DNA of 64,000 bases from Candidatus Poribacteria bacterium (GTDB lineage Bacteria; Poribacteria; WGA-4E; WGA-3G). Under the pieces are notes generated by a model, which was not told the DNA's origin, searched no databases, and saw only the letters and a list, made by a program, of their open reading frames with translations. The position numbers and the translations under genes are program-made. Positions 2,840-62,317 of this stretch are shown one piece after another (positions within the stretch are counted from its first letter, which is position 1; every line of letters starts with the position of its first letter). Where the stretch lies: assembly GCA_965200395.1 (NCBI GenBank), contig CBDAUH010000003.1, positions 810,398-874,397 of the forward strand. The letters are read 5' to 3'.

Positions 2840-3805
2840 ATGTACTGGAAATATCAGATGGCACGTATCATTGAGGTTGCACACTTAATCCACAGAGAAC
2901 CTCGTAAATGGACACGGCTTCGATTATCAGAACATTTTGGTGTCAATAAGACGACTATTCAACGCGATATAGACCTTTTGCGTGAAATGGGAATTGCAAT
3001 TATGCCTTGTGGTAGACAGGGATATGAGATGATTTCAGACTTCTTCCTGCCTGCTCTCAATTTGTCTTTTGAGGAGGCACTTGCACTAGTTATCGCAGCA
3101 GATTTCTATAAAGCAACGGAAGGGGAACACGCAATTGAAGTGCTTGATCAGGCAATTCACAAGATTACATGCAATTTGCCGGACCAGACGAATCGCGCGC
3201 TAAAGCAGCTCGCACCGAAGATTGAGGTGTCGTATCAACAAGTCAGTCCAATTGATGAAACTGAATCATATAAAGAGTTGTTATACCAAGCAAGCAGGGA
3301 AAGGACGAGGGTAATTATAACCTATAATTCCTTCAGCAGCCAAAAGGAGACTCGTCATAGACTTGCACCGTATGCGGTGCTGTTTCGTAAACGTGCCTGG
3401 TATGTCATCGGATGGTCTGAAACTACTAAACAGGTTTTTACCTTCCGTATCAACCGTATTAGTTCGCTTTCTATTACACATGGTGGTTATGAAATTCCCT
3501 CGGATTTCTCTGTTCAGAAATACCTTGAGAAAAGTTGGGATGTGATGCTTGGAGAAGATACACACGTTGTGATTTTATTTGCCAAACGTATTGCACCTTT
3601 GATTCAGGAGGTGAAATGGCATCCGACACAGCAGATACAAGAGGCAGATAAAGGAAGCTTTCGCTTTGAGGTAACAGTTGCAGGTTGGCAAGAGATCGGT
3701 TGGTGGGTTTTGGGTTGGGGACATGAGGCGAAGGTGATTAAACCGAAAGCATTGCGCGATTGGATCGCTCAAACAGCACGGAAAATGGTAAAGTTGTATG
3801 AATGA
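2840..3805 (+). CDS. WYL-domain transcriptional regulator (N-terminal HTH, WYL, C-terminal WCX-like)
   Basis: N-terminal DeoR-like HTH (FGVNKTTIQRDIDLLRE) and central WYL-like segment (YAVLFRKRAWYVIGW). The size of 321 aa is typical, and the gene sits upstream of the cas genes. Confidence 0.6.
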   Translation: MYWKYQMARIIEVAHLIHREPRKWTRLRLSEHFGVNKTTIQRDIDLLREMGIAIMPCGRQGYEMISDFFLPALNLSFEEALALVIAADFYKATEGEHAIEVLDQAIHKITCNLPDQTNRALKQLAPKIEVSYQQVSPIDETESYKELLYQASRERTRVIITYNSFSSQKETRHRLAPYAVLFRKRAWYVIGWSETTKQVFTFRINRISSLSITHGGYEIPSDFSVQKYLEKSWDVMLGEDTHVVILFAKRIAPLIQEVKWHPTQQIQEADKGSFRFEVTVAGWQEIGWWVLGWGHEAKVIKPKALRDWIAQTARKMVKLYE

Positions 3806-3859: not shown

Positions 3860-4150
3860 GGTTTAAGTTCTTTTTTCAGAATCGCGGATTACACCAAATC
3901 AACGGTATGAATGCCATTGAGGCATTCCCCGGATTACGCGGATTTCATTTTTCAGAATCGCGGATTTTCGTTTTTCAGAATCGCGGATTACACGGATTAC
4001 GCGGATTGACGCGGATTTTAAGAGTTTGGTATTCACATGTTTAATGGATAGATGGGCATGTTCTGGGACATCATATTTTCTGAGTTGAGGATTGCGCGAA
4101 TTAGGTTGTTCGTCTGAATCGCGGATTACGCAGATTGACGCGGATTAGAT
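3860..4150. repeat. Array of GAATCGCGGATT(A/T)C short repeats embedded in roughly 80-bp units, plus a roughly 140-bp block repeated at 18400..18560
   Basis: CGCGGATT-type units are visible many times. 3972..4110 aligns at about 85% identity with 18405..18545. Confidence 0.8.
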
Positions 4151-4235
4151 GGCAGGTGCTTCAGCGGAGTTAGAGAAATATGGGAATGAGGAACTACACA
4201 AAATTTTTTCTCAAGTAAAGGAAACAGACATGCTT

Positions 4236-4470
4236 GTCTCACTTTAAAACAGAAAACCACCCGATAGAGGGTGGGCAACCTATTCTCCCAGCCGGCTGGG
4301 AGGCAGCATGGCATACGCAACAGTTTTCGGCCGCTATTTTACTCCTGATCTTCGACAGAAAACCACTTCCATAAAAAGTGGGCGACTTATCCTACTGAAC
4401 GGTCAGCAGGCAGCATGGCATACGCAACAGTTTTCGGCCGCTATTTTACTTCTGGTGTCTATTATAGATT
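4236..4470. repeat. Tandem direct repeat (2 units of about 105 bp), each with two hairpins followed by the conserved GCAGCATGGCATACGCAACAGTTTTCGGCCGCTATTTTACT
   Basis: Unit 1 has hairpins CCACCCgatagaGGGTGG and CCCAGCCGGCTGGG. Unit 2 has CCACTTccataaaaAGTGG and CTGAACGGTCAG. The 40-nt 3' block is identical in both. Confidence 0.75.
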
Positions 4471-4619
4471 ATACTCTTTTTTGCATGTAATGTCAATTTC
4501 TTTTTAGCAAAAAGCAGAACCTACATCCACCGCTAAGGGAGGGTTCAGTCCTGCACTGTAAATATTATAACATTAACCCAAGATTAAGTTAATCTTTTTC
4601 CAGAGGCATTCAAAAGTCG

Positions 4620-4900
4620 ATTTTACCAAATCTCGGAGAACGCGGATTTTTGTTTTGTCTGAATCGCGGATTTTCACCGAATCGACGGTATGAATACTAT
4701 TTAGGTATTCCCCGGATTGCACGGATTTTCGCGGATTAGTTTTTTGATGCTTCAGGCGTGAGTTTCACAGGATGAGAATAAACGCAAGATTGCGGATTTT
4801 CGCGAATTAGGTGGCTGGTATTTCAAGATGCTTTTCATTTTCTAAATCGCGGATTTCGTCACATCGACGGTATGAATGTTATTTAGGCATTCCCCAGATT
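4620..4900. repeat. Further copies of the roughly 80-bp CGCGGATT-containing unit, with the GAATGCCATTGAGGCATTC-type hairpin
   Basis: Units at about 4648-4730 and 4838-4910 match the unit at 3885-3960. Confidence 0.7.
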
Positions 4901-5065: not shown

Positions 5066-7291
5066 ATGGTCATAGATAACCAACAGAAAGATCAGATCTT
5101 AGCCGCTCACTTTGCGACGACAAACCTGAGTGACGCTGCGGCATTCTTTGAGGCGTTTGTTCATCGGATGCACTGTGACAGAAAGTTTGATCAACTCAAA
5201 CATTGGTGGGACGATATGGATGCATTGCGCGTAATCCGAGCCGCCGAGCATCATATAAGGAGGCAGACATCAGAAACCGAATCATCTCCAGATCCGATTG
5301 AAAGTCCCTCTGTGGGTGAGGATGGACGTATCCAGTTTATGGGAGAACCCATTGGTAAGGTTCATAATTATTACCGTACCGTGCTTCCACAAGAGATGCA
5401 GATTCGACTTGCTTATGACACCCTAATTGAGCGATTTATGGAATTCTTACAAAGAGAGAAATGTGCTATTCGACTTTCTGAAAATCAATTGACAATTAGC
5501 CTGTTTATTCCCGGTCCCGATTTTCAACTTGAAGCTGCATGGCAAAGGTTCATTGAAAAATTCGCTTACTCCGAAGAAGAATTGTATAAATCCTTCACAC
5601 TGTTTGTGAATAGCCTGAAACTGACTGACAGAGGTTTTGGTTACGTTCACTTTCCATCGGTAACGGAAGATATGAAACTTTTGCAAGCGGCGTTTTATAT
5701 TGCTACACTTGAAGAAAGGGTCGTTCGGTACCCTGATAATTATAGGAAAGCCAAAACTGACGAAGATCGACGGACTGCCGCGATGGAGAATAGGGGAGGG
5801 CTCAAGCAACTCTTAACCGAATTGCGCCATGAATTGCAGGCAAGCACTCACATCTCCGATGAATCCGATAAAGTTGTAAGGCTTTTCGATAAGGCTTTAG
5901 ATCTTTCTCGCCGATTCAACAAAGCTGGCAAGACCCAATTTTCTTACGGTACAGTAAAACCTCGCGCCCAAAATGGGAAAATTGAAGATAAGATTATTGA
6001 CATTCTAACTGAACAAGTAAAACCTCTACGGTGTCCACTTGCTTCAATTGACGAAATAGCACAAGATTCCGAACAGAGTGCTGGAGATACTGCCAAAAAT
6101 CGGTGTTACAGCTGTAGCAGACCTATGCCTCCCAGAAGCGAAATCCGTCGTTTTAAAGGCAAATTGGAGGCAAATCGATTTGTTTTCTCAGCACCTTCGC
6201 AAAGATTACAATCTGGCGGCGTGCAAGTTCAACCTCCTATATGTTTTGATTGTTTAACAGTTGCTTTCGGTTGTCCGATAAAATTAACAGGGGACGCGAT
6301 CATCGTTCGTTTGTCGCCTGACGAAGAAAACGAATCGGTTTCAACTAAGAGGTATCTCCAAATGTTAACCCTCGGTGAACTCAATTTGATTGCTGGGCAG
6401 TATCTACTGATTAAGTGTAACGATTATGTAGGTTCAACGCCCGTATCAGAAAAAATAGGACCGGTTCAATATACACTCTGGCGAGTAGCACAAACACTGC
6501 CAACTACTGTGCTCGAAAAGATGAAGTTCACACTTTTCGCTGGAGAATCTGGGATTCCGATGTCGAGTAGACATCTTGTTTGGTTAAGTCTACTCAATGA
6601 AATTTTTTCACCGAACCTTGTTGTTGGAAAACGAGATAACATTCCGCTCGGGCAGGCAATCCGACTCGTACAAAAAGACGAAGTAATCTCAGCAATCTAT
6701 AAACTAGTAACAGCAGAACCAGGCGAATCTAAACCACTCAAAAATTGGTCATATAGTGAAAAACGGAGTCTTGAGGAACTCCGCGAAAAACACTGTGACT
6801 TACTTGAACAATTCTCGAAAGGAGATAAACTCATGTCGAAACAGGCAGACTTTTACCGTGACGTAGCTGCCCTTACCGGGTTAACTTATGCTTATTGCGA
6901 TTACTTCCGCAGGGAGGTAAGAGAAAAAGAGAACGTTGACCCGGTCCGCGAAGTCAAGAAGCTCATTGAGAAAGTTATAAATCCGAGTTTTTTCAACTAC
7001 GAAGCCTCTGATGTTCTTTCTGGTACGAGAGCTACGATGTACCGAAATCACGATAACTATTTCTGTTACGATCAGGCGAAGTTGTTGTTGGAAAACACTC
7101 TCAAGGTGCAACTGTCTGATCGTGTAAGGTCCGATGAGAAAGGTCCCGAACCGCTGGCAATTTACTTTGACGACATTCTGAACGCTTACGCTGCGTTGTC
7201 TGAAAAATATGATAGTAAGGCACAGCAACGGAAGTTAACTTATCAACTTAAATTGAACCTCTACGCGAAGTTCGCATTCCTATTCAATTAA
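5066..7291 (+). CDS. cas8: Cas8/Cas10-like large subunit of a type I effector complex (741 aa, internal Cys-rich Zn-finger region)
   Basis: First gene of the cas operon with a strong RBS AGGAGG. Cys cluster CYSC…(37 aa)…CFDC. No HD motifs seen. The call rests mainly on position and size. Confidence 0.45.
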   Translation: MVIDNQQKDQILAAHFATTNLSDAAAFFEAFVHRMHCDRKFDQLKHWWDDMDALRVIRAAEHHIRRQTSETESSPDPIESPSVGEDGRIQFMGEPIGKVHNYYRTVLPQEMQIRLAYDTLIERFMEFLQREKCAIRLSENQLTISLFIPGPDFQLEAAWQRFIEKFAYSEEELYKSFTLFVNSLKLTDRGFGYVHFPSVTEDMKLLQAAFYIATLEERVVRYPDNYRKAKTDEDRRTAAMENRGGLKQLLTELRHELQASTHISDESDKVVRLFDKALDLSRRFNKAGKTQFSYGTVKPRAQNGKIEDKIIDILTEQVKPLRCPLASIDEIAQDSEQSAGDTAKNRCYSCSRPMPPRSEIRRFKGKLEANRFVFSAPSQRLQSGGVQVQPPICFDCLTVAFGCPIKLTGDAIIVRLSPDEENESVSTKRYLQMLTLGELNLIAGQYLLIKCNDYVGSTPVSEKIGPVQYTLWRVAQTLPTTVLEKMKFTLFAGESGIPMSSRHLVWLSLLNEIFSPNLVVGKRDNIPLGQAIRLVQKDEVISAIYKLVTAEPGESKPLKNWSYSEKRSLEELREKHCDLLEQFSKGDKLMSKQADFYRDVAALTGLTYAYCDYFRREVREKENVDPVREVKKLIEKVINPSFFNYEASDVLSGTRATMYRNHDNYFCYDQAKLLLENTLKVQLSDRVRSDEKGPEPLAIYFDDILNAYAALSEKYDSKAQQRKLTYQLKLNLYAKFAFLFN

Positions 7292-7307: not shown

Positions 7308-7524
7308 ATGGCAATTAACGTGAGATCAGGGCTTGAGAATAATTCGAATGAACCCCGTTTCCACTTTGATATTTATGCAATTCTTGAAGGAGGCCAAGAA
7401 CTTTATTTTGGGCATGAGACACAAGTAAACGTAAGTATTGTTGAAATGGTCAGTATTGCTTCACCTGATAGCACAAATGAAGAAAACGTAGTCGAGAAAT
7501 GTTATATTTCCCCTACAAAACGCC
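7308..7524 (+). pseudogene. cas7: cas7 N-terminal part (interrupted by the IS4-family insertion)
   Basis: The ORF runs into the IS left end at 7525. Its frame rejoins 8875..9644 after removing the IS plus the TSD. Confidence 0.6.
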
Positions 7525-8863
7525 CGCACTTACCCCCATTTTTTTTTGAATGCGTGTGTAGTTGTGTTCATAGGTTTCCAATGTTGTCATGTCAGTTCTT
7601 CTGCGGTGAGAAAGTTTATATCTCTCAAACAAGTCCTCTCGGTGAACAAGAGCAACGCCTCCTGCGTCCACACCTCGCGGATCATACGGTTGATGACACT
7701 GATCACGGAGTAAACTTTCCGCGTAGGGTGTAAAGTTTTTGCCCATCTGTCCGCAGCTTTTTCATAACACAGGAACGCCAAACCATAAGCCACGACTGCC
7801 AACAAAAACAGAACTTCCATCCGGGGCTGTTCGTTCTTTCTCAAAACGAGTGCTTTGAAACCGAAGTTCGTTTTCAAGTCTCTGAACCCGTGTTCAATCT
7901 GTGTCCGCCGCTTGTAGCAAGTTCGCAGGGGGTTCCCCTGAAGCCGATTGGAGATAAGATATAACGGGTCTTTCTTGGTGTGCTGTCCCCCAACATAGAG
8001 TGCCACAGGCACCTGCTCCGTGTAGTGATAAAGCACTTGTGGGTAAAAACCATTTGCCACTTCTTCAAGGCACTGCTTGTTGCCTGCTATACGCACACCA
8101 ACATTGCGTGGCACACGCATCAAGTAGCAGATGCCTTGCCCCTCAAAAAACTTGAGGATCGCTCTCGCTCGGGCGAACCCTCTGTCAAAAACCAACACAG
8201 GCTCCCGACTATCCCCTAACACTTCAGCAACGCGACTATGGACATCACAACAGAACTGCTGAACTAAATCGTTATGTCCTTGATAGGTGCCATCTTTGAG
8301 CATCTCATTTTTATACAGAACCCAATAGAGCGGGATCGCACGATTGCGAAACGGAAGGGCTGCAACAATCGCCTTCCATCCGCCCGGTAAATCTGTCTCG
8401 TCTATCAGCACAAGCAGATGCTGCATCCCCACAGAACGACACACACTGACAACTATATGTGACAACCAGGCACCCTTCACCGCTGCAACCGGAAAATAGG
8501 TGTCAATAAACCGCAACACACGCTTTTGCTTAGACTTGTCGTGTTTCACACGGATAGGTAGATGTGAGGCAATCGATTGAATACGAAAACTCGGGGCTAC
8601 ACACACAGCCTGTAGCATCAAATAAAAGTTGCGGAGCGTCGGTTTTTTGATACAAACCCCGTTGAAAACTTTACGAAAACCTGTTATAATCTTTCTGGGG
8701 TGTACCCAACTAAGGGTATATTTCATAAGAATACCTCCCTGCCGGTTTTTCACCGACATTGGTTTATATGGAGGTATTCTACCATAACCCATCAGACTTT
8801 CCAACTTATTTCTATACACACACACGCCTACACATACCGCATACAAAAATGGGGGTAAGTGAG
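7525..8863 (-). mobile_element. IS4-family element copy 1, 1339 bp, 19-bp terminal inverted repeats (CGCACTTACCCCCATTTTT / AAAAATGGGGGTAAGTGAG), TSD 9 bp (flanks match over 11 bp, TACAAAACGCC)
   Basis: Identical to 14116..15454. The flanks (7514-7524 and 8864-8874) are direct repeats. Confidence 0.85.
7587..8846 (-). CDS. IS4-family DDE transposase (LVLIDETD; C-terminal Y..R…E…K motif), 419 aa
   Basis: Same ORF as 14178..15437. The 508-aa ORF in the track (7587..9113) is a read-through artefact beyond the IS end. Confidence 0.8.
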   Translation of the reverse strand: MYAVCVGVCVYRNKLESLMGYGRIPPYKPMSVKNRQGGILMKYTLSWVHPRKIITGFRKVFNGVCIKKPTLRNFYLMLQAVCVAPSFRIQSIASHLPIRVKHDKSKQKRVLRFIDTYFPVAAVKGAWLSHIVVSVCRSVGMQHLLVLIDETDLPGGWKAIVAALPFRNRAIPLYWVLYKNEMLKDGTYQGHNDLVQQFCCDVHSRVAEVLGDSREPVLVFDRGFARARAILKFFEGQGICYLMRVPRNVGVRIAGNKQCLEEVANGFYPQVLYHYTEQVPVALYVGGQHTKKDPLYLISNRLQGNPLRTCYKRRTQIEHGFRDLKTNFGFKALVLRKNEQPRMEVLFLLAVVAYGLAFLCYEKAADRWAKTLHPTRKVYSVISVINRMIREVWTQEALLLFTERTCLRDINFLTAEELT

Positions 8864-9644
8864 TACAAAACGCCGGGGTGTCGAACGTCGCGCATTGATT
8901 TGGGCCCCAACAGATACTGGGTTGCTCGGTGATATGTGGAATTGCGGTATCCCCCACACTTGTAGTAAAGCCGAATGTCCTATCTGTCGTGTTTTCGGGG
9001 GGCTTATTACAAGTAAAATTGAAGTCGATACCGAAGTCGAAGGTGAGAAGGAAGAACGGCCTGCGACAACCCTCGTCGGGCGCCTCACGCACAGTGGTGG
9101 GGTAGCAATCCAAGAGTTAGGGCCTGAAGAAAAACAGCGGGCAATGCATCCTTCACGACTCCGGCAAGAAGGAGATGAAACACCGATGCCCTTCAAACGA
9201 GAGTACAATCAGCCAGGATTGCTCTACCCGGTTTATAACCATTGTATGAGTATAACGGAAAGAGAATTTTCTTCTGTGGCTTATGCGTTTATGGGCGCGT
9301 TAGCACGATTAGGGGCAGGTAATCCGAAAGGTGTTAAGATTCATGATGCCCCGAAGTTGATAAAAGAGGACGTGGATGAACCCTGGATTGTTGTTGATCG
9401 ATACCTCGCTCCGCTTGGCAAGCGTCCTATTGTTTCACCTGCCATTGGAGATGTTGAAGAAGCAAAAAGTCAGTTTAGAGAAGCCGCTTTTTCTGTTGCA
9501 GGCAACAAGCGAGAACCTACCAGCGAGTTAACACAAGGGAATTTTCACCGATACATTGGGGATGCTGCTATTGCCAAGTTATCGACGTATCTGGTTCAAT
9601 TTGAAGAGGAGGTACTCGATGTGGATGCTGGAACTAACAATTAA
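8864..9644 (+). pseudogene. cas7: cas7 C-terminal part (about 257 aa) with a C-x5-C-x4-C-x2-C zinc finger
   Basis: Continues the frame of 7308..7524 (…ISPTKR|RGVERRAL…). The reconstructed protein is about 330 aa and lies between the large subunit and cas5. The Zn finger is CGIPHTCSKAECPIC. Confidence 0.5.
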
Positions 9645-10401
9645 ACCGACATCGGGATTGACGTTCCGACGGATGCCATCATCTATCTTGCATATCAGTA
9701 CGTACCCGTTTCTGCCGCCGACGACGATGTCCGGTTTCCTCCGCCGACTTAAGCTGCTGGAAGCCGGGCATCTCCCGGAAACCGCCGTTAAAAATCCGGA
9801 TTACTACGCGCTGCCCCCTCAACTTTGCACCCTTGGGGCATATCCGAAAGTCAACGAGCATCGCATTCATACAACAAAGCGTCAGGGCATCAGATCTTTC
9901 AACCATAACGCCTTTTCGCGAATCGTTCTTTACCAATCCACAAAGGAAGTATATCAACTTCATACATGGGAATACCTCTTCGCGGAGAAGCTTATCGGTT
10001 ATGTAGTTTCAGAAGATGAAAACTTGCTAAACCAATTAAAAACGGTTAAAAACTTCGGTTGTAAAATTGGCAAAGAAGGATACGCTTATGTAGATCAGAT
10101 TAGGGGACCGACAGAGCTCAGTTTAGAACACGTAACCGCGAAACCTGATACGCTCCTGCCTGGAGCAGTACTTGTCGGAGTTCCATGTGAGGCGTTTCCA
10201 CTGTACCGTTACGCTTGGAAAACAGGGATATCTGAAAACACAAACCTTGAATACCCAGAACCAAGCGCTATTGAGGGATTCGTTCCATTTGTCGCCGGAG
10301 AGATTCACGGCGAGATTGAACTTGATTACTATACTGATGGGAACGTCTATCTTCCGAAACCTTTCGTTGATGAATTGTGGGAAGGAGAAATAAATGACTA
10401 A
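9619..10401 (+). CDS. cas5: Cas5 (N-terminal motif STYPFLPPTTMSGFLRR typical of Cas5)
   Basis: Cas5-type N-terminal signature (Y-P-x-P-P-x-T-x-x-G). Overlaps the cas7 end in the coupled-translation manner. Confidence 0.6.
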   Translation: MWMLELTIKPTSGLTFRRMPSSILHISTYPFLPPTTMSGFLRRLKLLEAGHLPETAVKNPDYYALPPQLCTLGAYPKVNEHRIHTTKRQGIRSFNHNAFSRIVLYQSTKEVYQLHTWEYLFAEKLIGYVVSEDENLLNQLKTVKNFGCKIGKEGYAYVDQIRGPTELSLEHVTAKPDTLLPGAVLVGVPCEAFPLYRYAWKTGISENTNLEYPEPSAIEGFVPFVAGEIHGEIELDYYTDGNVYLPKPFVDELWEGEIND

Positions 10402-11179
10402 CGTAAAAGATACTGTAAAAGTAGGTCGAGTTTTCTTTGAACCTGAGAGCGGTCCCAATGTAAAAAACGTGACTGTTCTCACATTGGATAGTCACGTTGG
10501 AAACGTTGTCGAGTTAGTAAAAAGGTTCGATTCCAATTATTTCAAAGTTGATCACAGCGAAACTCACAACCTTCTGATACGCGCGGCGGAGAAACATGAT
10601 AATGCGAAACCTGAAACCTTCCGCGTAACCTACCGAAGTTGGAAGGAAAACGGACGTAAATCCATCGGTTATTCCTTCGCGGGACATAGGTTTAGGGTTT
10701 CAGATACTGATCGCTATGTTGAATTACTCATCCGATTGCATCATGAATTTTCTATAGATGGAATTGTAGAAGCACAAGCGCAGCTCAAAGCATTGGAACA
10801 GTATTCTAATGAACAGATAAAAAGATTTCCAATCGACCTCTATGTTCTGGAAATGTGCGATCAAATTGAAGCTGAACTTGAGACCTACGCTTTCACGAAG
10901 GATGTACAGCCTCGCGTCTTTATGGATTTTCACTCGCGCATGCGTGAGGATGAAAAAACTATTGAGGTTAACCCGTATCCATTTGATGAGAAAAGGATCC
11001 GCCTACCACTTGAATATTATGAGTTCGATATTCCAGCAAAATGCCGTGCCCAAATAGCCGCGGCTTTGGAAGAAAATAATCGAGAAAAAGGCTTGGACTT
11101 CCTCCATAAAATGATTATTGATGTAAATAAAAATACGGAATGTCAAAAGAAGGAGATGATTTTATGTCAAGCACCTTGA
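10394..11179 (+). CDS. cas3'': Standalone HD nuclease (Cas3'')
   Basis: HD-domain motifs LDSHVGNV (I), AAEKHDNAK (II), FAGHRF (III), IRLHHEF (IV). Lies immediately upstream of the Cas3 helicase. Confidence 0.6.
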   Translation: MTNVKDTVKVGRVFFEPESGPNVKNVTVLTLDSHVGNVVELVKRFDSNYFKVDHSETHNLLIRAAEKHDNAKPETFRVTYRSWKENGRKSIGYSFAGHRFRVSDTDRYVELLIRLHHEFSIDGIVEAQAQLKALEQYSNEQIKRFPIDLYVLEMCDQIEAELETYAFTKDVQPRVFMDFHSRMREDEKTIEVNPYPFDEKRIRLPLEYYEFDIPAKCRAQIAAALEENNREKGLDFLHKMIIDVNKNTECQKKEMILCQAP

Positions 11180-13050
11180 ACGCCTATAAACAATTTACGG
11201 AATTTGCTCCTAATCCAATGCAGGAAGAACTTTTTACTTACATCGCCCCGAAAGGCGAAAATCCTGCACTGCTACTTAAGGCACCCACGGGCAGTGGAAA
11301 AACAGAGGCTGTACTCATACCGAGTCTTGATTCCAATCGCAGGCTTTTTCTGATTTTCCCTTCTAGAAGCCTTGTTGACGATCAGATTAGTCGGTGTGAA
11401 GAATACCTTGAACGAGCATCATCAGAAAATATGAATAGATCTTATACATTAGTCGTTGACACAGGAGCCGAATCCCAGCGTACCGTTTTTACAAAAGGCG
11501 AGAGAGAAAAACCTGCAAGACGACATCTCTATGATGGTGATGTAATTCTCACAACATTTGATAAATTTCTATACCGCTTTTTCGGATTTGGTGAACCTAA
11601 GAAATCTTATATTTTCCCGTTCCGTATTCACTACGGCCAACGTCGAAATCTGTTTTGTTTCGACGAGGTTCACGCCTATGATCAGGTTGCGTTTGTCAAC
11701 TTTCAACGCCTTGTCAAGGCACTTTACAAAGTTAATTTAGATATGGTTGTCATGACTGCGACGATGCCTGATACATACCAAAATGAATTGGATTTCTTGG
11801 ATACGGTTGACTATATTACAGACGATAAAAATAAGCTGGAATTGGCAAGAGTGCAAAAAAGGCAGTATCCCAATAAAGCGGTCAAGTGTATTGCTGCAAA
11901 GCCCAAAGAAGTTAAGAACAAAATATGTGATTATGTCTCGGAACGATATGAAACAGATAAACGGATTATTGTTACTATTGAAACAATTAAAGACCTCATT
12001 CTAGTTTACAATGACTTGAAAGAAGTAAATGGTGGAGAGAATATTTTTCTTTACCACGGGCGTCTCTCTAATCCACAGCGCAAGATGGTTTATCGTAACC
12101 TGAAGAATCTTGAAAAAGAGAATAAGGGGTACCTCCTTTTCACGACGAGTGCTATTGAGGTAGGATGTGACCTTGACGCGCATCTGCTCATCACCGAGTT
12201 GTGCAACCCCGATTCGCTTATTCAACGCGTAGGAAGGTGCAACCGCAAAGGGCAGATTCCTAACGCTGAAATCGCCATTGTAGGTAACAAAATTCCATCT
12301 TTTCTCTCTATCCTTACTGAAGAAAAAACAGAGAAATATCTTGAGAAATTGCGGCAACAGAGTGGCACTAACTTCAAACCAGACGACATCCTTGAACTCA
12401 TGGAATACACACCACATTCCGATTACAGGGCAGAAGTACTTTTTGACATGCTTTATGAATACGTTTATGAAGCACGTCTCGAAAACAAACCGCTGCACGA
12501 TAGAGGACTTGTGATTACACGGAGTTTTGAACCCTCAATTACGCTTACAACCAAAGTCCCTGAAGAAGAGGCAAAGCACCAACCCGAAAATGCTGTAAGT
12601 GTGTCTATCCGAAATTGTATAGCGAGACGAGAAGATAATGAGTCTATCAACCCAGATTTTAAGGTATACCATAGGTTTTATGATAAGTATTATGAGGAAT
12701 TTAAATTTGTTGATCTTAACCGGCACGGAAGTGTCTACTTTAAAGAACTCTTTATTGAAGTTCCTGAATCTTATTTTTCTGAAGAGTTAGGCTACGTTGA
12801 ACCGCCCAAAGTATTTGAAGACCGGGGGACTCGCGGGTACCGTCGGAATTTTGTTTATCACACGACCGATGAAAACGGTAAACCTAAAGAAACATGGTTG
12901 CACTATCTGAAGGATTTGGAAAAGTCAGATCCAGAGGAAACATCATCTTTACTTCCAGAATCTGTTCAGACAGAACGTCACGAGTCGGTGGAATCTATTT
13001 TGTCGCACCCAGAAGGCGGTGAACAGTTGTCACTTTTTGATATTGATTAA
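11140..13050 (+). CDS. cas3': Cas3' DExH-box helicase (Walker A APTGSGKTEA, DEVH box CFDEVHAYD)
   Basis: SF2 helicase motifs, and a size of about 630 aa typical of a Cas3 helicase without HD. The true start is probably Met at 11164. Confidence 0.7.
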   Translation: MSKEGDDFMSSTLNAYKQFTEFAPNPMQEELFTYIAPKGENPALLLKAPTGSGKTEAVLIPSLDSNRRLFLIFPSRSLVDDQISRCEEYLERASSENMNRSYTLVVDTGAESQRTVFTKGEREKPARRHLYDGDVILTTFDKFLYRFFGFGEPKKSYIFPFRIHYGQRRNLFCFDEVHAYDQVAFVNFQRLVKALYKVNLDMVVMTATMPDTYQNELDFLDTVDYITDDKNKLELARVQKRQYPNKAVKCIAAKPKEVKNKICDYVSERYETDKRIIVTIETIKDLILVYNDLKEVNGGENIFLYHGRLSNPQRKMVYRNLKNLEKENKGYLLFTTSAIEVGCDLDAHLLITELCNPDSLIQRVGRCNRKGQIPNAEIAIVGNKIPSFLSILTEEKTEKYLEKLRQQSGTNFKPDDILELMEYTPHSDYRAEVLFDMLYEYVYEARLENKPLHDRGLVITRSFEPSITLTTKVPEEEAKHQPENAVSVSIRNCIARREDNESINPDFKVYHRFYDKYYEEFKFVDLNRHGSVYFKELFIEVPESYFSEELGYVEPPKVFEDRGTRGYRRNFVYHTTDENGKPKETWLHYLKDLEKSDPEETSSLLPESVQTERHESVESILSHPEGGEQLSLFDID

Positions 13051-13061
13051 GGAGACACCCC

Positions 13062-13889
13062 ATGCCTATCAGCACACGCATCTCACTCGTCCCGGAAACT
13101 GATGTAACACTCCGCCCGACGATGGGACATCACGCACACGCGGCTTTTCTTGCTATCCTACGCAGAAGTGACCCTGATCTTGCGGAGACACTCCATGCGC
13201 AATCAACACAAAAACCCTTCACCGTCTCACCACTCGTCGCGAAGGCAAAGCAGTACGCCAAACAACTCCATATCCGGGCAGGCACGGAATGCAAACTCCG
13301 ATTCACATTCCTTGACGATACGCTCTTCACAGCTTTCGGGCGTGCCTTCCTAAAATTTCAACTCCCTAAGATTAGGCTTGGCAGCGCGATTTTTCAGGTC
13401 AAACAACTCGTTTCACATGCAACGGAGGCGGAGGATTGGAGCGGTAACACGACATATCCCGATCTCGTCCAATCAGCGAAAGCGGAGGCGGACATTCGTC
13501 TCAAATTCCATTCGCCGACAGCCTTTCGTACTCTCACACCGCAGGGACAGAAAACGTATAACCACACGCAAGTCGATCCTATTCGGTGCTATCAGAGTTG
13601 GATTAACAAATGGAACGCCTTTGCACCGTTCCAATTTGACAGAGACGAACTCCGTGCCTTTATTACAGAAAACGCCCGCGTTTCTCGTACCGAGACGCGC
13701 ACTCAAGCCCTCAATTTCGGCAGACAGACTGAGATAGGATGGGTAGGAACGTGCACATTTCATTTTCAACACAAAAACGTGCTTAATGAAGACCTACTCC
13801 GCGCAGCCAATTGCTTAGCAGATTTCGCATTTTACTGCGGCACAGGATATAAAACTACAATGGGAATGGGACAAACAAAACGGATTTAA
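13062..13889 (+). CDS. cas6: Cas6 crRNA endoribonuclease
   Basis: N-terminal catalytic His region (GHHAHAAFLAIL), KPFTVSPL motif, and C-terminal glycine-rich loop CGTGYKTTMGMGQ (GhGxxxxxGhG). Confidence 0.8.
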   Translation: MPISTRISLVPETDVTLRPTMGHHAHAAFLAILRRSDPDLAETLHAQSTQKPFTVSPLVAKAKQYAKQLHIRAGTECKLRFTFLDDTLFTAFGRAFLKFQLPKIRLGSAIFQVKQLVSHATEAEDWSGNTTYPDLVQSAKAEADIRLKFHSPTAFRTLTPQGQKTYNHTQVDPIRCYQSWINKWNAFAPFQFDRDELRAFITENARVSRTETRTQALNFGRQTEIGWVGTCTFHFQHKNVLNEDLLRAANCLADFAFYCGTGYKTTMGMGQTKRI

Positions 13890-13904
13890 AATAGGAGTAA
13901 AACT

Positions 13905-14115
13905 ATGTCAGAAACATACATACCACTCTCACAGATAAACACTTATGTCTTTTGTCCCCGGCGATTCTATTACGAATCCATTGAGGGACATCAAGTCGTC
14001 AATGAGCATGTCGAAGAAGGCAAAATCAAACATGAACACGTTCACACAGCCGTGACAGATCGAAAAAAAGGAGACAAAACCATCTCTCGCCGACAATACC
14101 TCGCCTCCGATACAC
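13905..14115 (+). pseudogene. cas4-cas1: cas4-cas1 fusion, N-terminal Cas4 part (interrupted by IS4-family copy 2)
   Basis: Cas4 N-terminal Cys motif (YVFCPRRFYYE). The ORF runs into the IS at 14116. After removing the IS plus the TSD, the frame continues into 15464..16890. Confidence 0.75.
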
Positions 14116-15454
14116 CGCACTTACCCCCATTTTTTTTTGAATGCGTGTGTAGTTGTGTTCATAGGTCTCCAATGTTGTCATGTCAGTTCTTCTGCGGTGA
14201 GAAAGTTTATATCTCTCAAACAAGTCCTCTCGGTGAACAAGAGCAACGCCTCCTGCGTCCACACCTCGCGGATCATACGGTTGATGACACTGATCACGGA
14301 GTAAACTTTCCGCGTAGGGTGTAAAGTTTTTGCCCATCTGTCCGCAGCTTTTTCATAACACAGGAACGCCAAACCATAAGCCACGACTGCCAACAAAAAC
14401 AGAACTTCCATCCGGGGCTGTTCGTTCTTTCTCAAAACGAGTGCTTTGAAACCGAAGTTCGTTTTCAAGTCTCTGAACCCGTGTTCAATCTGTGTCCGCC
14501 GCTTGTAGCAAGTTCGCAGGGGGTTCCCCTGAAGCCGATTGGAGATAAGATATAACGGGTCTTTCTTGGTGTGCTGTCCCCCAACATAGAGTGCCACAGG
14601 CACCTGCTCCGTGTAGTGATAAAGCACTTGTGGGTAAAAACCATTTGCCACTTCTTCAAGGCACTGCTTGTTGCCTGCTATACGCACACCAACATTGCGT
14701 GGCACACGCATCAAGTAGCAGATGCCTTGCCCCTCAAAAAACTTGAGGATCGCTCTCGCTCGGGCGAACCCTCTGTCAAAAACCAACACAGGCTCCCGAC
14801 TATCCCCTAACACTTTAACAACGCGACTATGGACATCACAACAGAACTGCTGAACTAAATCGTTATGTCCTTGATAGGTGCCATCTTTGAGCATCTCATT
14901 TTTATACAGAACCCAATAGAGCGGGATCGCACGATTGCGAAACGGAAGGGCTGCAACAATCGCCTTCCATCCGCCCGGTAAATCTGTCTCGTCTATCAGC
15001 ACAAGCAGATGCTGCATCCCCACAGAACGACACACACTGACAACTATATGTGACAACCAGGCACCCTTCACCGCTGCAACCGGAAAATAGGTGTCAATAA
15101 ACCGCAACACACGCTTTTGCTTAGACTTGTCGTGTTTCACACGGATAGGTAGATGTGAGGCAATCGATTGAATACGAAAACTTGGGGCTACACACACAGC
15201 CTGTAGCATCAAATAAAAGTTGCGGAGCGTCGGTTTTTTGATACAAACCCCGTTGAAAACTTTACGAAAACCTGTTATAATCTTTCTGGGGTGTACCCAA
15301 CTAAGGGTATATTTCATAAGAATACCTCCCTGCCGGTTTTTCACCGACATTGGTTTATATGGAGGTATTCTACCATAACCCATCAGACTTTCCAACTTAT
15401 TTCTATACACACACACGCCTACACATACCGCATACAAAAATGGGGGTAAGTGAG
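14116..15454 (-). mobile_element. IS4-family element copy 2, 1339 bp, identical to copy 1, 9-bp TSD CCGATACAC (14107-14115 and 15455-15463)
   Basis: Exact sequence identity with 7525..8863 and flanking 9-bp direct repeats. Confidence 0.9.
14178..15437 (-). CDS. IS4-family DDE transposase, 419 aa
   Basis: ORF inside the IS. Carries LVLIDETD, DRGF and YKRRTQIEHGFRDLK motifs. Confidence 0.8.
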   Translation of the reverse strand: MYAVCVGVCVYRNKLESLMGYGRIPPYKPMSVKNRQGGILMKYTLSWVHPRKIITGFRKVFNGVCIKKPTLRNFYLMLQAVCVAPSFRIQSIASHLPIRVKHDKSKQKRVLRFIDTYFPVAAVKGAWLSHIVVSVCRSVGMQHLLVLIDETDLPGGWKAIVAALPFRNRAIPLYWVLYKNEMLKDGTYQGHNDLVQQFCCDVHSRVVKVLGDSREPVLVFDRGFARARAILKFFEGQGICYLMRVPRNVGVRIAGNKQCLEEVANGFYPQVLYHYTEQVPVALYVGGQHTKKDPLYLISNRLQGNPLRTCYKRRTQIEHGFRDLKTNFGFKALVLRKNEQPRMEVLFLLAVVAYGLAFLCYEKAADRWAKTLHPTRKVYSVISVINRMIREVWTQEALLLFTERTCLRDINFLTAEELT

Positions 15455-16890
15455 CCGATACACTCGGTGTCTCTGGCTACACCGATCTTGTTGAGGAGAA
15501 AGACGGTATTCCCTATCCAGTAGAATTCAAAAAAGCAGGCATGGGAAACTGGCTCAACGATCAAGTACAACTCTGTTTACAGGGACTTTTATTAGAGGAA
15601 AAGACAGGAATTTCTATTCCACACGGCTATATTTTCTATATCGGTTCTAAACGGCGTCGGAAGGTACCGTTTGATAAAGAACTCCGTAGGGCAACACACC
15701 AATACGTGGCAGAAGCGCGTTCACTCTTAGATACTAGACAGATTCCAGAACCTGTTCATGACAACCGGTGTAATGGGTGCAGCGTCCAATCAATCTGTCT
15801 ACCGGATGAGGTCGCCTACCTCCATGAGTTAGATGAGCGGCCCAAACGCATTAAACCCGCACTCGGTATAGACAATGTCTTATATGTTGACGAACCGGGC
15901 TGTGCAATCAAAAAGACAGGGGAGCGACTCCTTGTCGTCAAAGAAAGCGAAACAATTCGAGATATTCCACTGATTCATCTCGGACAGGTAGTTATCTGCG
16001 GTAATGTCAGTTTGACAACGCCTGCGATGCAAACGCTTTTACATGAGGGTATTCCCGTTGTGTTTCTCTCTGCCTATGGACGCTACCAGGGTGCTTTGAC
16101 ACCGCAAGTGTCACGCAATTCACTTTTGCGGACCGCACAGCATCGCGCCGCAGCTAACAATACACAGTGCCTTGACCTCTCGAAAGCATTTGTTCACGGA
16201 AAACTGGTGAACATGCGAACGATGCTTCAACGTAGAAAATGGCAGGCTTCGGATAGCACAGATTCGGCTTTAGAACCGCTGATCACCAACATAAAGACTA
16301 TACAAGCGATGGAAAAACGGATTGATAAGGCAACAGATATCACCGAATTGTTAGGATTGGAAGGCAACGCGTCCGCCGCCTATTTCCGTTCATTCAACTT
16401 TATGCTAAAAGAAGAAGTGGGATTCGATTTTCAAAAACGGAGTCGACGTCCACCCGCTGACCCAATAAACGCATTGCTCAGCTTCGCTTATTCATTATTG
16501 ACAGCAGATATAAACTCAGCACTTCAGGTTGTCGGCCTTGACCCTTATGTCGGTTATTTTCACCAGTTGAAATATGGTAAGCCTTGCCTTGCCCTGGATT
16601 TGATGGAGGAATTTCGACCAATTATTGCAGACTCCGTTGTCATTACCTTGATCAACAACCGGCGCATCAAACCTGAAGATTTTACGCAATCTCATGACGG
16701 TTGGTATCTGAAAGATAATTCTCGGAAAGTATTCTATGCTGCTTATGAAACGCGGAAAAATGAGACAATCACGCATCCTGTCTTCAAGTATAAACTGACG
16801 TTCCGCCGGGCAATGGAATTGCAAGCACGATTGCTGGCTAAATATCTTACAAGCGAAATTGACCGTTATACGCCCTTGACAATTCGGTAA
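15455..16890 (+). pseudogene. cas4-cas1: cas4-cas1 fusion, C-terminal part: Cas4 RecB-nuclease motifs (GYTDLVEEKDG, PVEFKKAG), Fe-S cysteines (CNGCSVQSIC), then a full Cas1
   Basis: Reconstructed junction …SDT|LGVSGYTDLVEEKDGIPYPVEFKKAGMGNW… is in frame with the 449-aa ORF at 15541. That ORF carries a Cas1-like C-terminal domain. Confidence 0.75.
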
Positions 16891-16919: not shown

Positions 16920-17192
16920 ATGCATTACACAGTTGCTTATGATATTACGGATGACAAACGTAGGAACAAAGTCGCTAAAATTTTGAAGGACTTTGGAGCC
17001 CGTGTGCAGTACAGTGTCTTTGAGTGTAATATTGACCGTCGTGCATTTCTACAGTTGCAAAATCGCTTGAAACAAGCTATGAATTTGAGCGAGGATACTA
17101 TAACATTTTATCATATCTGTGCTGCATGTGAGAAACAGATTGAACGTATCGGTCAAGATAAAGGACTTGATAAACAGTCGTATATTGTATAG
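16920..17192 (+). CDS. cas2: Cas2
   Basis: 90-aa protein with the typical Cas2 N-terminus (YDITDDKRRNKVAKILKDFGARVQYSVFEC). Lies directly upstream of the leader and array. Confidence 0.85.
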   Translation: MHYTVAYDITDDKRRNKVAKILKDFGARVQYSVFECNIDRRAFLQLQNRLKQAMNLSEDTITFYHICAACEKQIERIGQDKGLDKQSYIV

Positions 17193-17391: not shown

Positions 17392-18385
17392 CTTGAAATC
17401 AAAAGCATCTCGATTACGAGATTGAAACATGCGCGTGACTGCCGGCAATATCCGTGAAGATATCTTGAAATCAAAAGCATCTCGATTACGAGATTGAAAC
17501 ATGCGCGTGACTGCCGGCAATATCCGTGAAGATATCTTGAAATCAAAAGCATCTCGATTACGAGATTGAAACATGCGCGTGACTGCCGGCAATATCCGTG
17601 AAGATATCTTGAAATCAAAAGCATCTCGATTACGAGATTGAAACTGAGATTGTAGCACATCGTCAACAAGCTGCCGTTTACTTGAAATCAAAAGCATCTC
17701 GATTACGAGATTGAAACTCCGCATAAGTGCCTTCATTGATAACAACATCCTTCGCACTTGAAATCAAAAGCATCTCGATTACGAGATTGAAACCATGGCA
17801 GCACGCACCCTGAGCTGCCGCCTGCAACCTTGAAATCAAAAGCATCTCGATTACGAGATTGAAACCGCAAAGACTGGGAGCGATCAGAGGCGAAGTATCT
17901 GCTTGAAATCAAAAGCATCTCGATTACGAGATTGAAACTAGACTGCTGATCGTGCCAGTACCAGTGCCACCAATAGAGCTTGAAATCAAAAGCATCTCGA
18001 TTACGAGATTGAAACCAAGTTGCTCATGGATTTCTGGCATGTAGTGGTCGGCCTTGAAATCAAAAGCATCTCGATTACGAGATTGAAACGTAGTTAAGCA
18101 GCCAGCTGACGCTGCCGTTGCTGGTAACTTGAAATCAAAAGCATCTCGATTACGAGATTGAAACGTGGTTAATAGGTTTCGCAAGATTTCATCTCTATTC
18201 ACTTGAAATCAAAAGCATCTCGATTACGAGATTGAAACTGTAGAGAGTAGCCAGCATGTAAGGGACATCCAGACATCTTGAAATCAAAAGCATCTCGATT
18301 ACGAGATTGAAACATTGGTGTTCCAGCAGGTCAGGCGATCGCAAGTTGCTTGAAATCAAAAGCATCTCGATGACGAGAATAGCGT
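17392..18385 (+). CRISPR. CRISPR array: 14 repeats (37 bp, CTTGAAATCAAAAGCATCTCGATTACGAGATTGAAAC) and 13 spacers (35-40 bp). The last repeat is degenerate at its 3' end. Spacers 1-3 are identical.
   Basis: Repeats at 17392, 17464, 17536, 17608, 17681, 17757, 17829, 17902, 17979, 18053, 18128, 18202, 18277 and 18349 (degenerate). There is an internal 6-bp stem ATCTCG/CGAGAT. The 3' ATTGAAAC matches the common Cas6-generated 8-nt 5' handle. Confidence 0.95.
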
Positions 18386-18607
18386 GGGTTCGGTTTCCTG
18401 GCTTGTCAGAATCGCGGATTTTCACGGATTACGCGGATTTACGCGGATTTTAAGAGTTTGGTATCCACACATCCTAATGGATAGATGGGCCTCTTCTGGG
18501 ATGTCACATTTTCTGGGCTGGGGATTGCGTGGATTTACTCGGATTGGTTGGTGCTTCCATGTGCTTTTCGTAGGATTTGGTGCTTTCGTCACCTTCTATG
18601 TGGCACG

Positions 18608-18722
18608 CTTGAAATCAAAGGCATCTCGATTACGAGATTGAAACGAAAGGCGAATTTGTGTTAAGATATTGTTATGTTCTGTTAACTTAAAATCAAGAGC
18701 GTCTCGATGACGAGAATAGCGT
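18608..18722 (+). CRISPR. Orphan mini-array: one variant repeat (A13G) + a 41-bp spacer + a degenerate terminal-type repeat, inside a duplicated array-end module
   Basis: Repeat 18608..18644 CTTGAAATCAAAGGCATCTCGATTACGAGATTGAAAC. Degenerate repeat 18686..18722, followed by the same GGGTTCGGTTTCCTGGCTTGTC(A/G)GAATCGCGGATT flank found at 18386..18420. Confidence 0.7.
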
Positions 18723-18724
18723 GG

Positions 18725-19110
18725 GTTCGGTTTCCTGGCTTGTCGGAATCGCGGATTACGCGGATTACACGGATTTACACGGATTTTGTTTCGGTGTTTC
18801 GAGGGGTTTTTCATAGGATTATGTGGATTTTTTTGTGGCTTCTGGTGTCTGTTTGCGTGCTACGATGCACAACCTGGAAAGGTTATGCTACAAAGAGTGC
18901 ACAACCTAACAGGTTATGCTACAAAGAGTGCACACAAGGCACAACCTGGAAAGGTTATGCTACAAAGAGGTCACACAAGGCACAACCTAAAGCACCTTGA
19001 AGTGCCAACCACCTGATCTGCGTCAATCCGCGATTCAGGAAAAGAGCACGCAAGAAGACACAGACTCTTACAAATCCGCGTCAATCCGCGTAATCTGTGT
19101 AATCCGCGAT
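18725..19110. repeat. MITE-like block bounded by about 45-bp inverted arrays of CGCGGATT units. Encloses three tandem copies of the dispersed hairpin repeat (CACAACCTGGAAAGGTTATGCTACAAAG).
   Basis: 18727-18790 (forward GAATCGCGGATTACGCGGATTACACGGATT…) versus 19022-19108 (reverse complement AATCCGCG… units). Internal repeats at 18868-18990. Confidence 0.5.
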
Positions 19111-35453: not shown

Positions 35454-36772
35454 TAGGGTTATTTAGTTTTATAGATATTCATTTTATCAAGTTAACTGTG
35501 AGTAAAGGTTTTGATGCATATTCCTTTATTTTATCAGCGATCCGTGTTATGCCTTGAAAACGGAATACGGATAATGCGGTATTTCGTAAAGCGGCCATGA
35601 CTTGTGGAATAGCCCCGCATCTGACAGGTGATGCGTCCTCGCCGAGTAGCACATCGCGCATCCAATGCGACTTGTTCTCTATTGCCCAATGGCCTCTCCG
35701 TAAAGCAAGTAAGCGTTCTGCGGATGCCTCACTCGGTTTCAGGCTCGTAATCCCATAGGTAGTGCGGGTTGTCTCTTCTCCTGTCTTCATATTTTTGGAA
35801 GTATAGCAATATTGGATCACTTGTGCTACGCCCGGCCAATCCAGATATGCGTTGAGACTTGTGCTTGCCTTGATACATCGCGTCTCAAGTCTGCCATGCG
35901 ACTTTTCAATCGTCTCATGCATGTATATCGGTTTCCCTAAAGTAGGGTGTGTTGTGTCTTCAGAAACCGCGTCAGGCACGCCTTGAAAAAGTTTTTCAAT
36001 CGCTTCTAACAGGTCCGGTTGATTGCCTTTAACAGGCAGCATATAGTCGCCCCCGCTGTTTATGATTCCGTGGCAGAAAGAGCGTTGTGTCAAAAGGGCA
36101 TCCGTTGTGATAACTTTGCCTGCTACATCAAACGCTTTGAGGATTTCCGTTGATACCGGTATTTCATTGGTTTTGTCGCTGACACCTCGCTGCGTGAGGG
36201 TGATCCCTAACTCATGAGAGACGACGGAGAGTAAATGGCTGATCATCGCACCACTTTTTTTAGACGCACGCAGGGTTTTGCCATCTATAGCGACTGCGTC
36301 GGAACACCCCCGCAAATCAGGGCACTCTGCTAATGCGGCGTTTACCCATTTTGACAGGATGTTTTCTAATGCTTCAACGTCCAACTTTTTCAACAGATTA
36401 TGGATAGTTGCGGCACAAGGCGTTTTGTGATGTGTGAACCCGAGTGCTTTTGTGAGTGCGGGCTGTGAGCGTGCCCAGGTAGCGATGGATGTATACCCTT
36501 TATGCCCGCACATCAATCCAACGACTAAAAGTGCGAGGATTGCTTTCAACGGGTGTCGTTTCCCTTTTTCCTTGCGTGGGTCTGTAAGTTCTGCTAACAT
36601 ATCCATTAAGTGGCAGGACTTTTTTCTTGTCATTCTTCACCTCAAAAGATCGTAAGTTTTTAAGGTGAAGTATAGCAGATATACCATGAAAAATCACGGT
36701 ATATCTGCACATCCTAAAATATTAACGATTGTGATAAAAAACAACTAAAATACATAAAACTAAATAACCCTA
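35454..36772 (-). mobile_element. ISAs1-family IS, copy 1 (1319 bp), terminal inverted repeat TAGGGTTATTTAGTTTTAT, 9-bp TSD CTCCTTATG (35445-35453 and 36773-36781)
   Basis: Identical to 62318..63636 in inverted orientation. Flanking 9-bp direct repeats. Confidence 0.85.
35479..36633 (-). CDS. ISAs1-family transposase (H-repeat-associated-type N-terminal domain + DDE)
   Basis: 384 aa, identical to 62457..63611. ISAs1-like motifs (KGKRHPL…, AIDGKTLR, ITTDALLTQ). Confidence 0.7.
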   Translation of the reverse strand: MTRKKSCHLMDMLAELTDPRKEKGKRHPLKAILALLVVGLMCGHKGYTSIATWARSQPALTKALGFTHHKTPCAATIHNLLKKLDVEALENILSKWVNAALAECPDLRGCSDAVAIDGKTLRASKKSGAMISHLLSVVSHELGITLTQRGVSDKTNEIPVSTEILKAFDVAGKVITTDALLTQRSFCHGIINSGGDYMLPVKGNQPDLLEAIEKLFQGVPDAVSEDTTHPTLGKPIYMHETIEKSHGRLETRCIKASTSLNAYLDWPGVAQVIQYCYTSKNMKTGEETTRTTYGITSLKPSEASAERLLALRRGHWAIENKSHWMRDVLLGEDASPVRCGAIPQVMAALRNTALSVFRFQGITRIADKIKEYASKPLLTVNLIK

Positions 36773-36904
36773 CTCCTTATGTTCTAAGAATTTGCGCAGA
36801 GATCCTGCGGGTCGACAGATTTAGGTATTTTGAATAGTGGCAAATTATTAAATACTTGCCAAAAAATTGTAACTTTGTTAAGATTATAGTAGTTATGTAG
36901 TACA

Positions 36905-52135: not shown

Positions 52136-52230
52136 CTCACGTTATAGTAGGATTCATAATTAGGTTTACGGACGAAAGGGACCCCCTTTATCCCCCGCAA
52201 GCGGGGGGAGATAAGATAGGAGTTAAAACA

Positions 52231-62297: not shown

Positions 62298-62317
62298 AAT
62301 TCTCCTATTATTAGTTG

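Follow-up and report, generated by a model that had tools for sequence, protein, structure and literature searches.

How does one CRISPR-Cas operon come to have two of its genes interrupted by the same mobile element, and was the expected loss of immunity tolerated, selected or driven? The question is raised by a 64,000-nt stretch of contig CBDAUH010000003.1 (the window, by whose numbering all positions are given unless another locus is named). Here, two copies of one IS4-family insertion sequence (IS) lie in cas genes of an operon that its gene content marks as type I-B-like, one at 7525–8863 in cas7 and the other at 14116–15454 in the Cas4 part of a cas4-cas1 fusion. Both interruptions had been noted in an original prediction made from the letters alone, and PADLOC (Cas7b) and NCBIfam (NF049935) bore out the identities of the genes concerned. 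We find that the two insertions are independent events, and consider it probable that both occurred recently, during an IS expansion, and were kept since CRISPR immunity was dispensable. The host is probably a Poribacteria sponge symbiont. Those homologues of the two Cas proteins that carry an organism name derive from Poribacteria metagenome-assembled genomes (MAGs), and among the other proteins encoded in the window are TPR, HEAT, WD40 and sulfatase proteins, which are typical of Poribacteria symbionts.

Two insertions in one operon

A repeat search and pairwise alignment showed the two 1339-bp copies to be direct repeats, with their transposases antisense to the cas operon. Each is bounded by a perfect target-site duplication, TACAAAACGCC in cas7 and CCGATACAC in cas4. 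A 9-bp duplication had been proposed for both; the cas4 site conforms, but the cas7 duplication is 11 bp, because all seven IS copies examined terminate in ...GTGAG and the cas7 frame reopens only upon deletion of 1350 bp (1339 + 11). Deleting 1339 + 9 bp leads to a frameshift and stop codons.

The ancestral reading frames can be rebuilt exactly, as originally proposed, with gap-free junctions. The rebuilt Cas7 (7308–7524 joined to 8875–9644) comprises 328 aa and matches PADLOC Cas7b with E 5e-109. It has 707 homologues, the best intact ones being 75–84% identical and 308–336 aa long, and the junction residues T70-K71-R72-R73-G74 are invariant among the aligned homologues, without a gap. The rebuilt Cas4-Cas1 (13905–14115 joined to 15464–16890) comprises 545 aa, the length of nearly all of its 120 best homologues, and scores 634 bits against the NCBIfam Cas4g/Cas1g model NF049935 (cut-off 560); its junction, between LASDT and LGVSG, is likewise gap-free. 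Relatives have intact versions of both interrupted genes, and one related locus (L012, ~76% DNA identity) shows the same gene order and is IS-free. L012 carries a lesion of its own, an in-frame deletion (L012 15229–16161, equivalent to window 13928–15978 minus the IS) that removes the Cas4 domain and ~30 Cas1 residues from an otherwise intact locus; this is a second, independent adaptation-gene lesion in the group. An insertion hot spot at Cas4 residue 70 was considered, as a 473-aa homologue (P0401) begins just past the site, and was rejected: the corresponding contig (L016, 2x coverage) shows frameshifts and no IS.

A separate target duplication brackets each copy, and the pair is bounded on its outside by unlike sequences (TACAAAACGCC versus CCGATACAC), which makes the two insertions independent events. 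We find it hardly credible that the pair represents a composite transposon, that the interval moved in as a unit, or that an assembler misplaced the IS copies, even though two direct copies do flank 5.25 kb and assemblers are notoriously prone to error at repeats. A composite transposon would show one duplication shared by the outer ends of the pair, which is absent here, and gene order across both copies is collinear with that of L012. Misassembly is further opposed by Logan short-read contigs that are 100% identical to the window (L014, 4905–7550; L001, 8835–14143; L015, 15428–17421). Each reaches 26–29 nt into an IS end, and all four junctions recur, in several runs; de Bruijn assemblers halt just inside multi-copy elements. 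Because the four junctions recur in separate short-read contigs, an assembly artefact, the event named in advance as a refutation, is unlikely. The public collections searched contained no empty-site contig or protein, and the search for uninterrupted alleles that had been suggested as a check was negative throughout. The homologue search found no intact Cas7 above 84% identity and no intact Cas4-Cas1 above 89%, only the fragments P0007 and P0392, respectively, reaching 100%, and the sequence of the empty cas7 site had 0 exact matches in JGI metagenomes.

The insertions are evolutionarily recent, because the duplications are perfect, the rebuilt open reading frames (ORFs) contain no further lesions, the remaining cas genes are undamaged and the 13 repeats of the array show no differences among them. 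The argument first offered for recency, 100% identity over 1339 bp, does not hold. The copies differ by four substitutions (7576/14167, 8225/14816, 8227/14818 and 8592/15183; 99.70% identity), two of which change the transposase (AE versus VK). Small contigs of ENA assembly ERZ25068762 yielded five extra copies (four of 1339 bp and one of 1340 bp), and pairwise differences among the IS copies amount to 1–10 nt. Three of the differences between the window copies (IS positions 53, 702 and 704) are common to other copies, and the fourth (1069) occurs in copy 2 alone. With three shared polymorphisms out of four, the differences stem from separate donor copies or from gene conversion and provide no clock, hence dating from IS divergence was dropped.

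The insertion sequence and its targets

Judged by its transposase and ends, the element is a distant, undescribed member of the IS4 family. One end, CGCACTTACCCCCATTTTTTTTTG, and the reverse complement of the other, CTCACTTACCCCCATTTTTGTATG, match at 21 of 24 positions. The ATG at 8726 (15317 in copy 2) is likely the real transposase start, because the homologues measure 375–381 aa and the codon is accompanied by a GGGAGG ribosome-binding site. The resulting 379-aa protein matches Pfam DDE_Tnp_1 (PF01609; E 1e-11, 45 bits versus a cut-off of 23), with D109 (LIDET), D181 (FDRGF) and E278 as candidate catalytic residues. The IS4 family signature is Y-(2)-R-(3)-E-(6)-K in the C1 region, and YKRRTQIEHGFRDLK, at residues 271–285, fits it. 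Together with the inverted repeats, the duplications fit the IS4 range of ~8–13 bp, being 11 bp at cas7 and 9 bp at cas4 and at three copies elsewhere (L008, L009 and L010). The family assignment of the original prediction is therefore upheld by the triad, the signature and the inverted repeats, with the restriction that the element is a distant member, because its best NCBIfam score stays under the curated cut-off (NF033591, IS4_2: 106 bits versus 152; NF033592: 34 versus 115) and its closest annotated relative, the IS4-like ISTth2, is only 27% identical. In its general build it resembles IS10 and IS4, with a single DDE transposase bearing the signature, short inverted repeats, 9-bp (and 11-bp) duplications and a length of 1.3 kb.

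IS10 has facing promoters, pIN and pOUT, around its transposase start. Promoter-like sites on the minus and plus strands of the present element also face one another across the transposase start codon, an arrangement that, on consensus matches only, resembles pIN/pOUT and may provide antisense control. The predicted plus-strand transcript folds into two hairpins (z = -3.8), and an Rfam scan of the window returned nothing. If active, the plus-strand site would send transcripts into the downstream cas genes.

Copies elsewhere inform on target preference. Their duplications read GATAAAGGG (L008), CCTTTATCC (L009, the same site in opposite orientation, shifted by 1 bp) and GACTTGGAC (L010); L007 and L011 have flanks without a matching duplication, as expected from recombination between IS copies. 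Three of the seven copies with readable flanks (L008, L009 and L011) sit, in both orientations, in a palindrome resembling repetitive extragenic palindromic (REP) sequences, CCCCCCGCwwGCGGGGGGATAAAGGGGGGT. One side of this palindrome resembles the IS terminus (ACTTACCCCCC). Targeting of REP or palindromic repeats is known from IS1397 and ISKpn1, both of the IS3 family, and the use of one palindrome position in both orientations recalls them; here, the specificity is relaxed, with cas sites that lack the palindrome. The existence of a hot spot (at GATAAAGGG), along with the position of both cas insertions ~70 codons into the gene (217 nt from the start codon in cas7 and 211 nt in cas4-cas1), would favor a sequence or structural preference that the cas sites meet, yet we judge such directed insertion very improbable. 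Neither cas site contains the REP-like palindrome, and an unoccupied copy of it stands in the same window (52180–52215). In the target-site comparison that had been called for, which covered five intact duplications and thus too few for a logo, no motif clearly links TACAAAACGCC, CCGATACAC and GACTTGGAC to the hot spot.

The genome appears to be undergoing IS expansion. The transposase cluster (≥90% identity) contains 64 distinct member sequences, which are spread over three contigs (2.60, 1.53 and 1.46 Mb) of one assembly and include some read-through fusions with host genes (FG-GAP; HTH_3 + Lactamase_B). Scans of JGI metagenomes and of viral contigs for the IS ends gave 0 matches. A contig scan located the same IS terminus in at least two loci of other Poribacteria MAGs, on distantly related IS (38–45% transposase identity). 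These data establish the IS as an IS4-type element not named before, which has its hot spot at a REP-like palindrome in this genome and whose relatives in other Poribacteria MAGs share the inverted-repeat terminus.

Consequences and possible causes of the predicted loss

Cas7 is the backbone of type I effector complexes that binds CRISPR RNA. The 1339-bp IS transposed twice, independently, into one operon, after cas7 codon 72 with an 11-bp staggered cut and after Cas4 codon 70 with a 9-bp cut, and each insertion would truncate the host protein. The 72-aa Cas7 stub and the 261-aa remainder, possibly translated from a GTG at 8859 that the IS created, should not assemble. With the Cas7 backbone split, no Cascade complex would form and interference is predicted to be lost, in agreement with the original prediction. 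Adaptation had been called probably inactive as well, which we would soften to strong impairment. The Cas4 domain is without residues 1–70, among them the first of its cluster cysteines (in FCPRRF), and would be unlinked from Cas1. In the Cas4-Cas1 fusion of Geobacter, mutations in the Cas4 domain sharply cut acquisition and abolish selection of the protospacer-adjacent motif (PMC6547450), so acquisition is expected to be strongly reduced here and this selection lost. A Cas1-only product of 449 aa, lacking Cas4 residues 1–96 and retaining the complete Cas1 domain, is nevertheless conceivable. Downstream genes may still be transcribed, by read-through or from the outward promoter of IS10-pOUT type. 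The insertions would then have persisted in a lineage for which CRISPR immunity is dispensable, and the direct IS copies could serve as a recombination substrate for deletion of the 5.25 kb in between, from the cas7 3' end to the cas4 5' end.

The original prediction left open whether the loss was tolerated or selected; tolerated loss is the simplest reading. Four considerations weigh against our explanation. Under uniform insertion of ~66 copies in 5.6 Mb, two insertions in 9.4 kb of cas DNA have P ~0.006, a value that ignores the removal of insertions in useful genes; pure chance suffices only if purifying selection closes most of the genome to the IS, which is plausible. Another CRISPR-Cas system outside the window may supply the functions. 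The Logan runs may share the biological sample of the assembly, and are then possibly not independent at the population level and silent on other strains. Finally, the inactivity of the locus is itself a prediction from sequence. At the local IS density (four in 52 kb, the rest of the window), two in 9.4 kb have P ~0.16, an estimate that is local and post hoc, and neither P value demonstrates targeting. The proposal that the sites had been selected non-randomly is thus not borne out, in view of the dozens of copies, the absence of the REP-like target from the cas sites and the P of ~0.16.

Positive selection for the loss of immunity, as an escape from self-targeting or to keep a plasmid or prophage, with IS insertion as the commonest mutational route, is unlikely in our assessment. 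It would suit two separate insertions that affect the interference and adaptation modules of one operon, as well as the low P value under uniform insertion, and IS-mediated escape from CRISPR self-targeting has been shown experimentally (PMC10359306). A self-target could be sought in spacer 9 (18165–18201), which matches the operon's own cas5 (10007–10043) at 26 of 37 nt, but the match is too weak to license interference. It may be due to chance, or a foreign element with a related cas5 may have supplied the spacer. The proposed comparison of spacers with mobile elements gave no convincing target: none of the spacers matches the window or the fetched loci credibly over its full length, and two spacers (ATGCGCGTGACTGCCGGCAATATCCGTGAAGATAT included) had 0 matches in viral contigs. 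Moreover, a cas7 knock-out alone suffices for escape, which leaves the second insertion, in cas4, unexplained, and the clustering is less striking at the local IS density. Selection is thereby left without positive support. It is quite improbable that the loss was driven, whether by preferential recruitment of the IS to a transcribed cas operon or by separate selection for the knock-out of each module. On this reading, the outward IS promoter might in addition sustain expression of cas5, cas3, cas6, cas2, the array and the Cas1-only protein, to serve another role.

Insertion of IS into cas genes has ample precedent. A survey of complete genomes recorded 163 natural IS insertions in cas genes, involving 20 IS families and 57 genera (Sheng et al. 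2023, Nat Commun, PMC10359306), and IS10 (IS4 family) and IS1 were found to insert into cas genes experimentally under CRISPR self-targeting (PMC10359306). The present insertions share with those cases a cas ORF broken up by an IS that has target duplications, and a predicted loss of immunity. In contrast to them, two copies of one IS occupy two genes of one operon, the host is uncultured and probably a Poribacteria symbiont, and the IS is an undescribed and distant member of the IS4 family. Loss of immunity by this route is ordinary and documented; only the double insertion by one IS is mildly unusual. The locus is one more case of a known phenomenon and opens no new question; its value lies in a clean, datable snapshot of how the CRISPR-Cas system of an uncultured symbiont decays as IS copies expand. 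On paper each lesion can be reversed exactly, and the ancestral, probably functional, proteins could be synthesised.

The CRISPR-Cas locus and its surroundings

The features of the locus are compiled in Table 1. PADLOC detected the Cas8b, Cas7 and Cas5 effector genes of type I-B; a Cas3 helicase, Cas6, Cas4, Cas1 and Cas2 are present along with an adjoining CRISPR array, and Cas4 is fused to Cas1. With cas8b, cas7b, cas5b, a putatively split cas3''/cas3', cas6, cas4-cas1, cas2 and an array of 37-nt repeats, the operon resembles type I-B systems that have a Cas4-Cas1 fusion. It departs from type I-B in two respects: the adaptation fusion fits the NCBIfam model named for type I-G, and the effector proteins Cas8, Cas7 and Cas5 are recognised by PADLOC profiles only, with no Pfam or NCBIfam match. 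The HD nuclease is probably the 261-aa protein encoded ahead of cas3', as suggested by its motifs and position; Pfam, PADLOC and PDB searches with this protein gave no significant match, and it is conserved in L012. The regulator upstream of the operon also precedes the intact cas locus in L012.

Table 1. Coordinates of the CRISPR-Cas locus, the two IS copies and associated features in the window.
Feature	Position	Strand	Remarks
WYL/WCX-domain HTH regulator	2840..3805	+	Upstream of cas operon; Pfam WYL, WCX, HTH_11
cas8b-like large subunit	5066..7291	+	741 aa, intact; PADLOC Cas8b, E 1.5e-118
cas7, 5' fragment	7308..7524	+	Codons 1-72; fused to 8875-9644 gives the 328-aa ORF
Left target-site duplication, cas7	7514..7524		11 bp, TACAAAACGCC
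IS copy 1, IS4 family	7525..8863	-	1339 bp; 24-bp imperfect terminal inverted repeats
Transposase, copy 1	7587..8726	-	379 aa; probable start ATG 8726
Outward promoter-like site, copy 1	8662..8690	+	TTGAAA-17-TATAAT, extended -10 TG; 11/12 consensus matches; antisense to transposase 5' end
Promoter-like site upstream of transposase start	8804-8776	-	Consensus match
Right target-site duplication, cas7	8864..8874		11 bp, TACAAAACGCC
cas7, 3' fragment	8875..9644	+	261-aa ORF from GTG at 8859, supplied by IS end; in protein collection as P0007
cas5b-like gene	9619..10401	+	260 aa, intact; PADLOC Cas5b, E 1e-78; gene call from L001
Candidate Cas3'' HD nuclease	10394..11179	+	261 aa; H/HD/HH motifs; position ahead of cas3'
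cas3' helicase	11164..13050	+	Intact; NCBIfam cas3_core 165 bits, above cut-off; Pfam DEAD, Helicase_C, Cas3-like_C_2
cas6	13062..13889	+	Intact; NCBIfam TIGR01877, Pfam CRISPR_Cas6
cas4-cas1, 5' fragment	13905..14115	+	Cas4-domain codons 1-70
Left target-site duplication, cas4	14107..14115		9 bp, CCGATACAC
IS copy 2	14116..15454	-	1339 bp; same orientation as copy 1
Transposase, copy 2	14178..15317	-	Probable start ATG 15317
Outward promoter-like site, copy 2	15253-15281	+	Counterpart of 8662..8690
Right target-site duplication, cas4	15455..15463		9 bp, CCGATACAC
cas4-cas1, remainder	15464..16890	+	First in-frame start past IS, ATG at 15541 (M97), 449-aa product; in protein collection as P0392
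cas2	16920..17192	+	Intact; NCBIfam/Pfam profile searches
CRISPR array	17392..18385	+	13 identical 37-nt repeats and a degenerate terminal repeat

Several minor observations concern the locus itself. The Cas8/Cas7/Cas5 system is widespread, with hundreds of homologues at 70–85% identity, and Cas7 has a CxxxxCxxC motif. The three leader-proximal spacers of the array are identical (ATGCGCGTGACTGCCGGCAATATCCGTGAAGATAT in each case, 17429–17607), which could reflect repeat-mediated duplication or repeated acquisition. At the other side, the degenerate terminal repeat and the trailer are duplicated (18349–18450 and 18687–18790), with a good repeat in between (18608–18644); the distal end of the array is rearranged. 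Clusters of short motifs (CGCGGATTw or CACGGATTT) occur on both sides of the CRISPR-cas locus, at 4100–4150, 4640–4860, 18400–18450, 18740–18790 and 19050–19110; they may represent a dispersed repeat or sites at which a regulator binds. The non-coding stretch at 4150–4503 upstream of cas8b is 82.6% identical to its counterpart in L012 (7327–7683), compared with ~76% for the cas genes. It contains a 47-nt internal direct repeat (4301–4347 and 4408–4454) and, on the minus strand, two hairpins that resemble terminators.

Two further IS types are present in the window, each as two copies with 100% identity. One occupies 777–2181 and 36904–38308, and the other 35454–36773 and, inverted, 62317–63636. 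The transposase of one of the two types is a 425-aa DDE_5/DDE_Tnp_1 protein; that of the other is 384 aa long and has DDE_Tnp_1_assoc and DDE_Tnp_1 domains. Together with the two copies in the cas genes, the six IS copies make up ~13% of the window.

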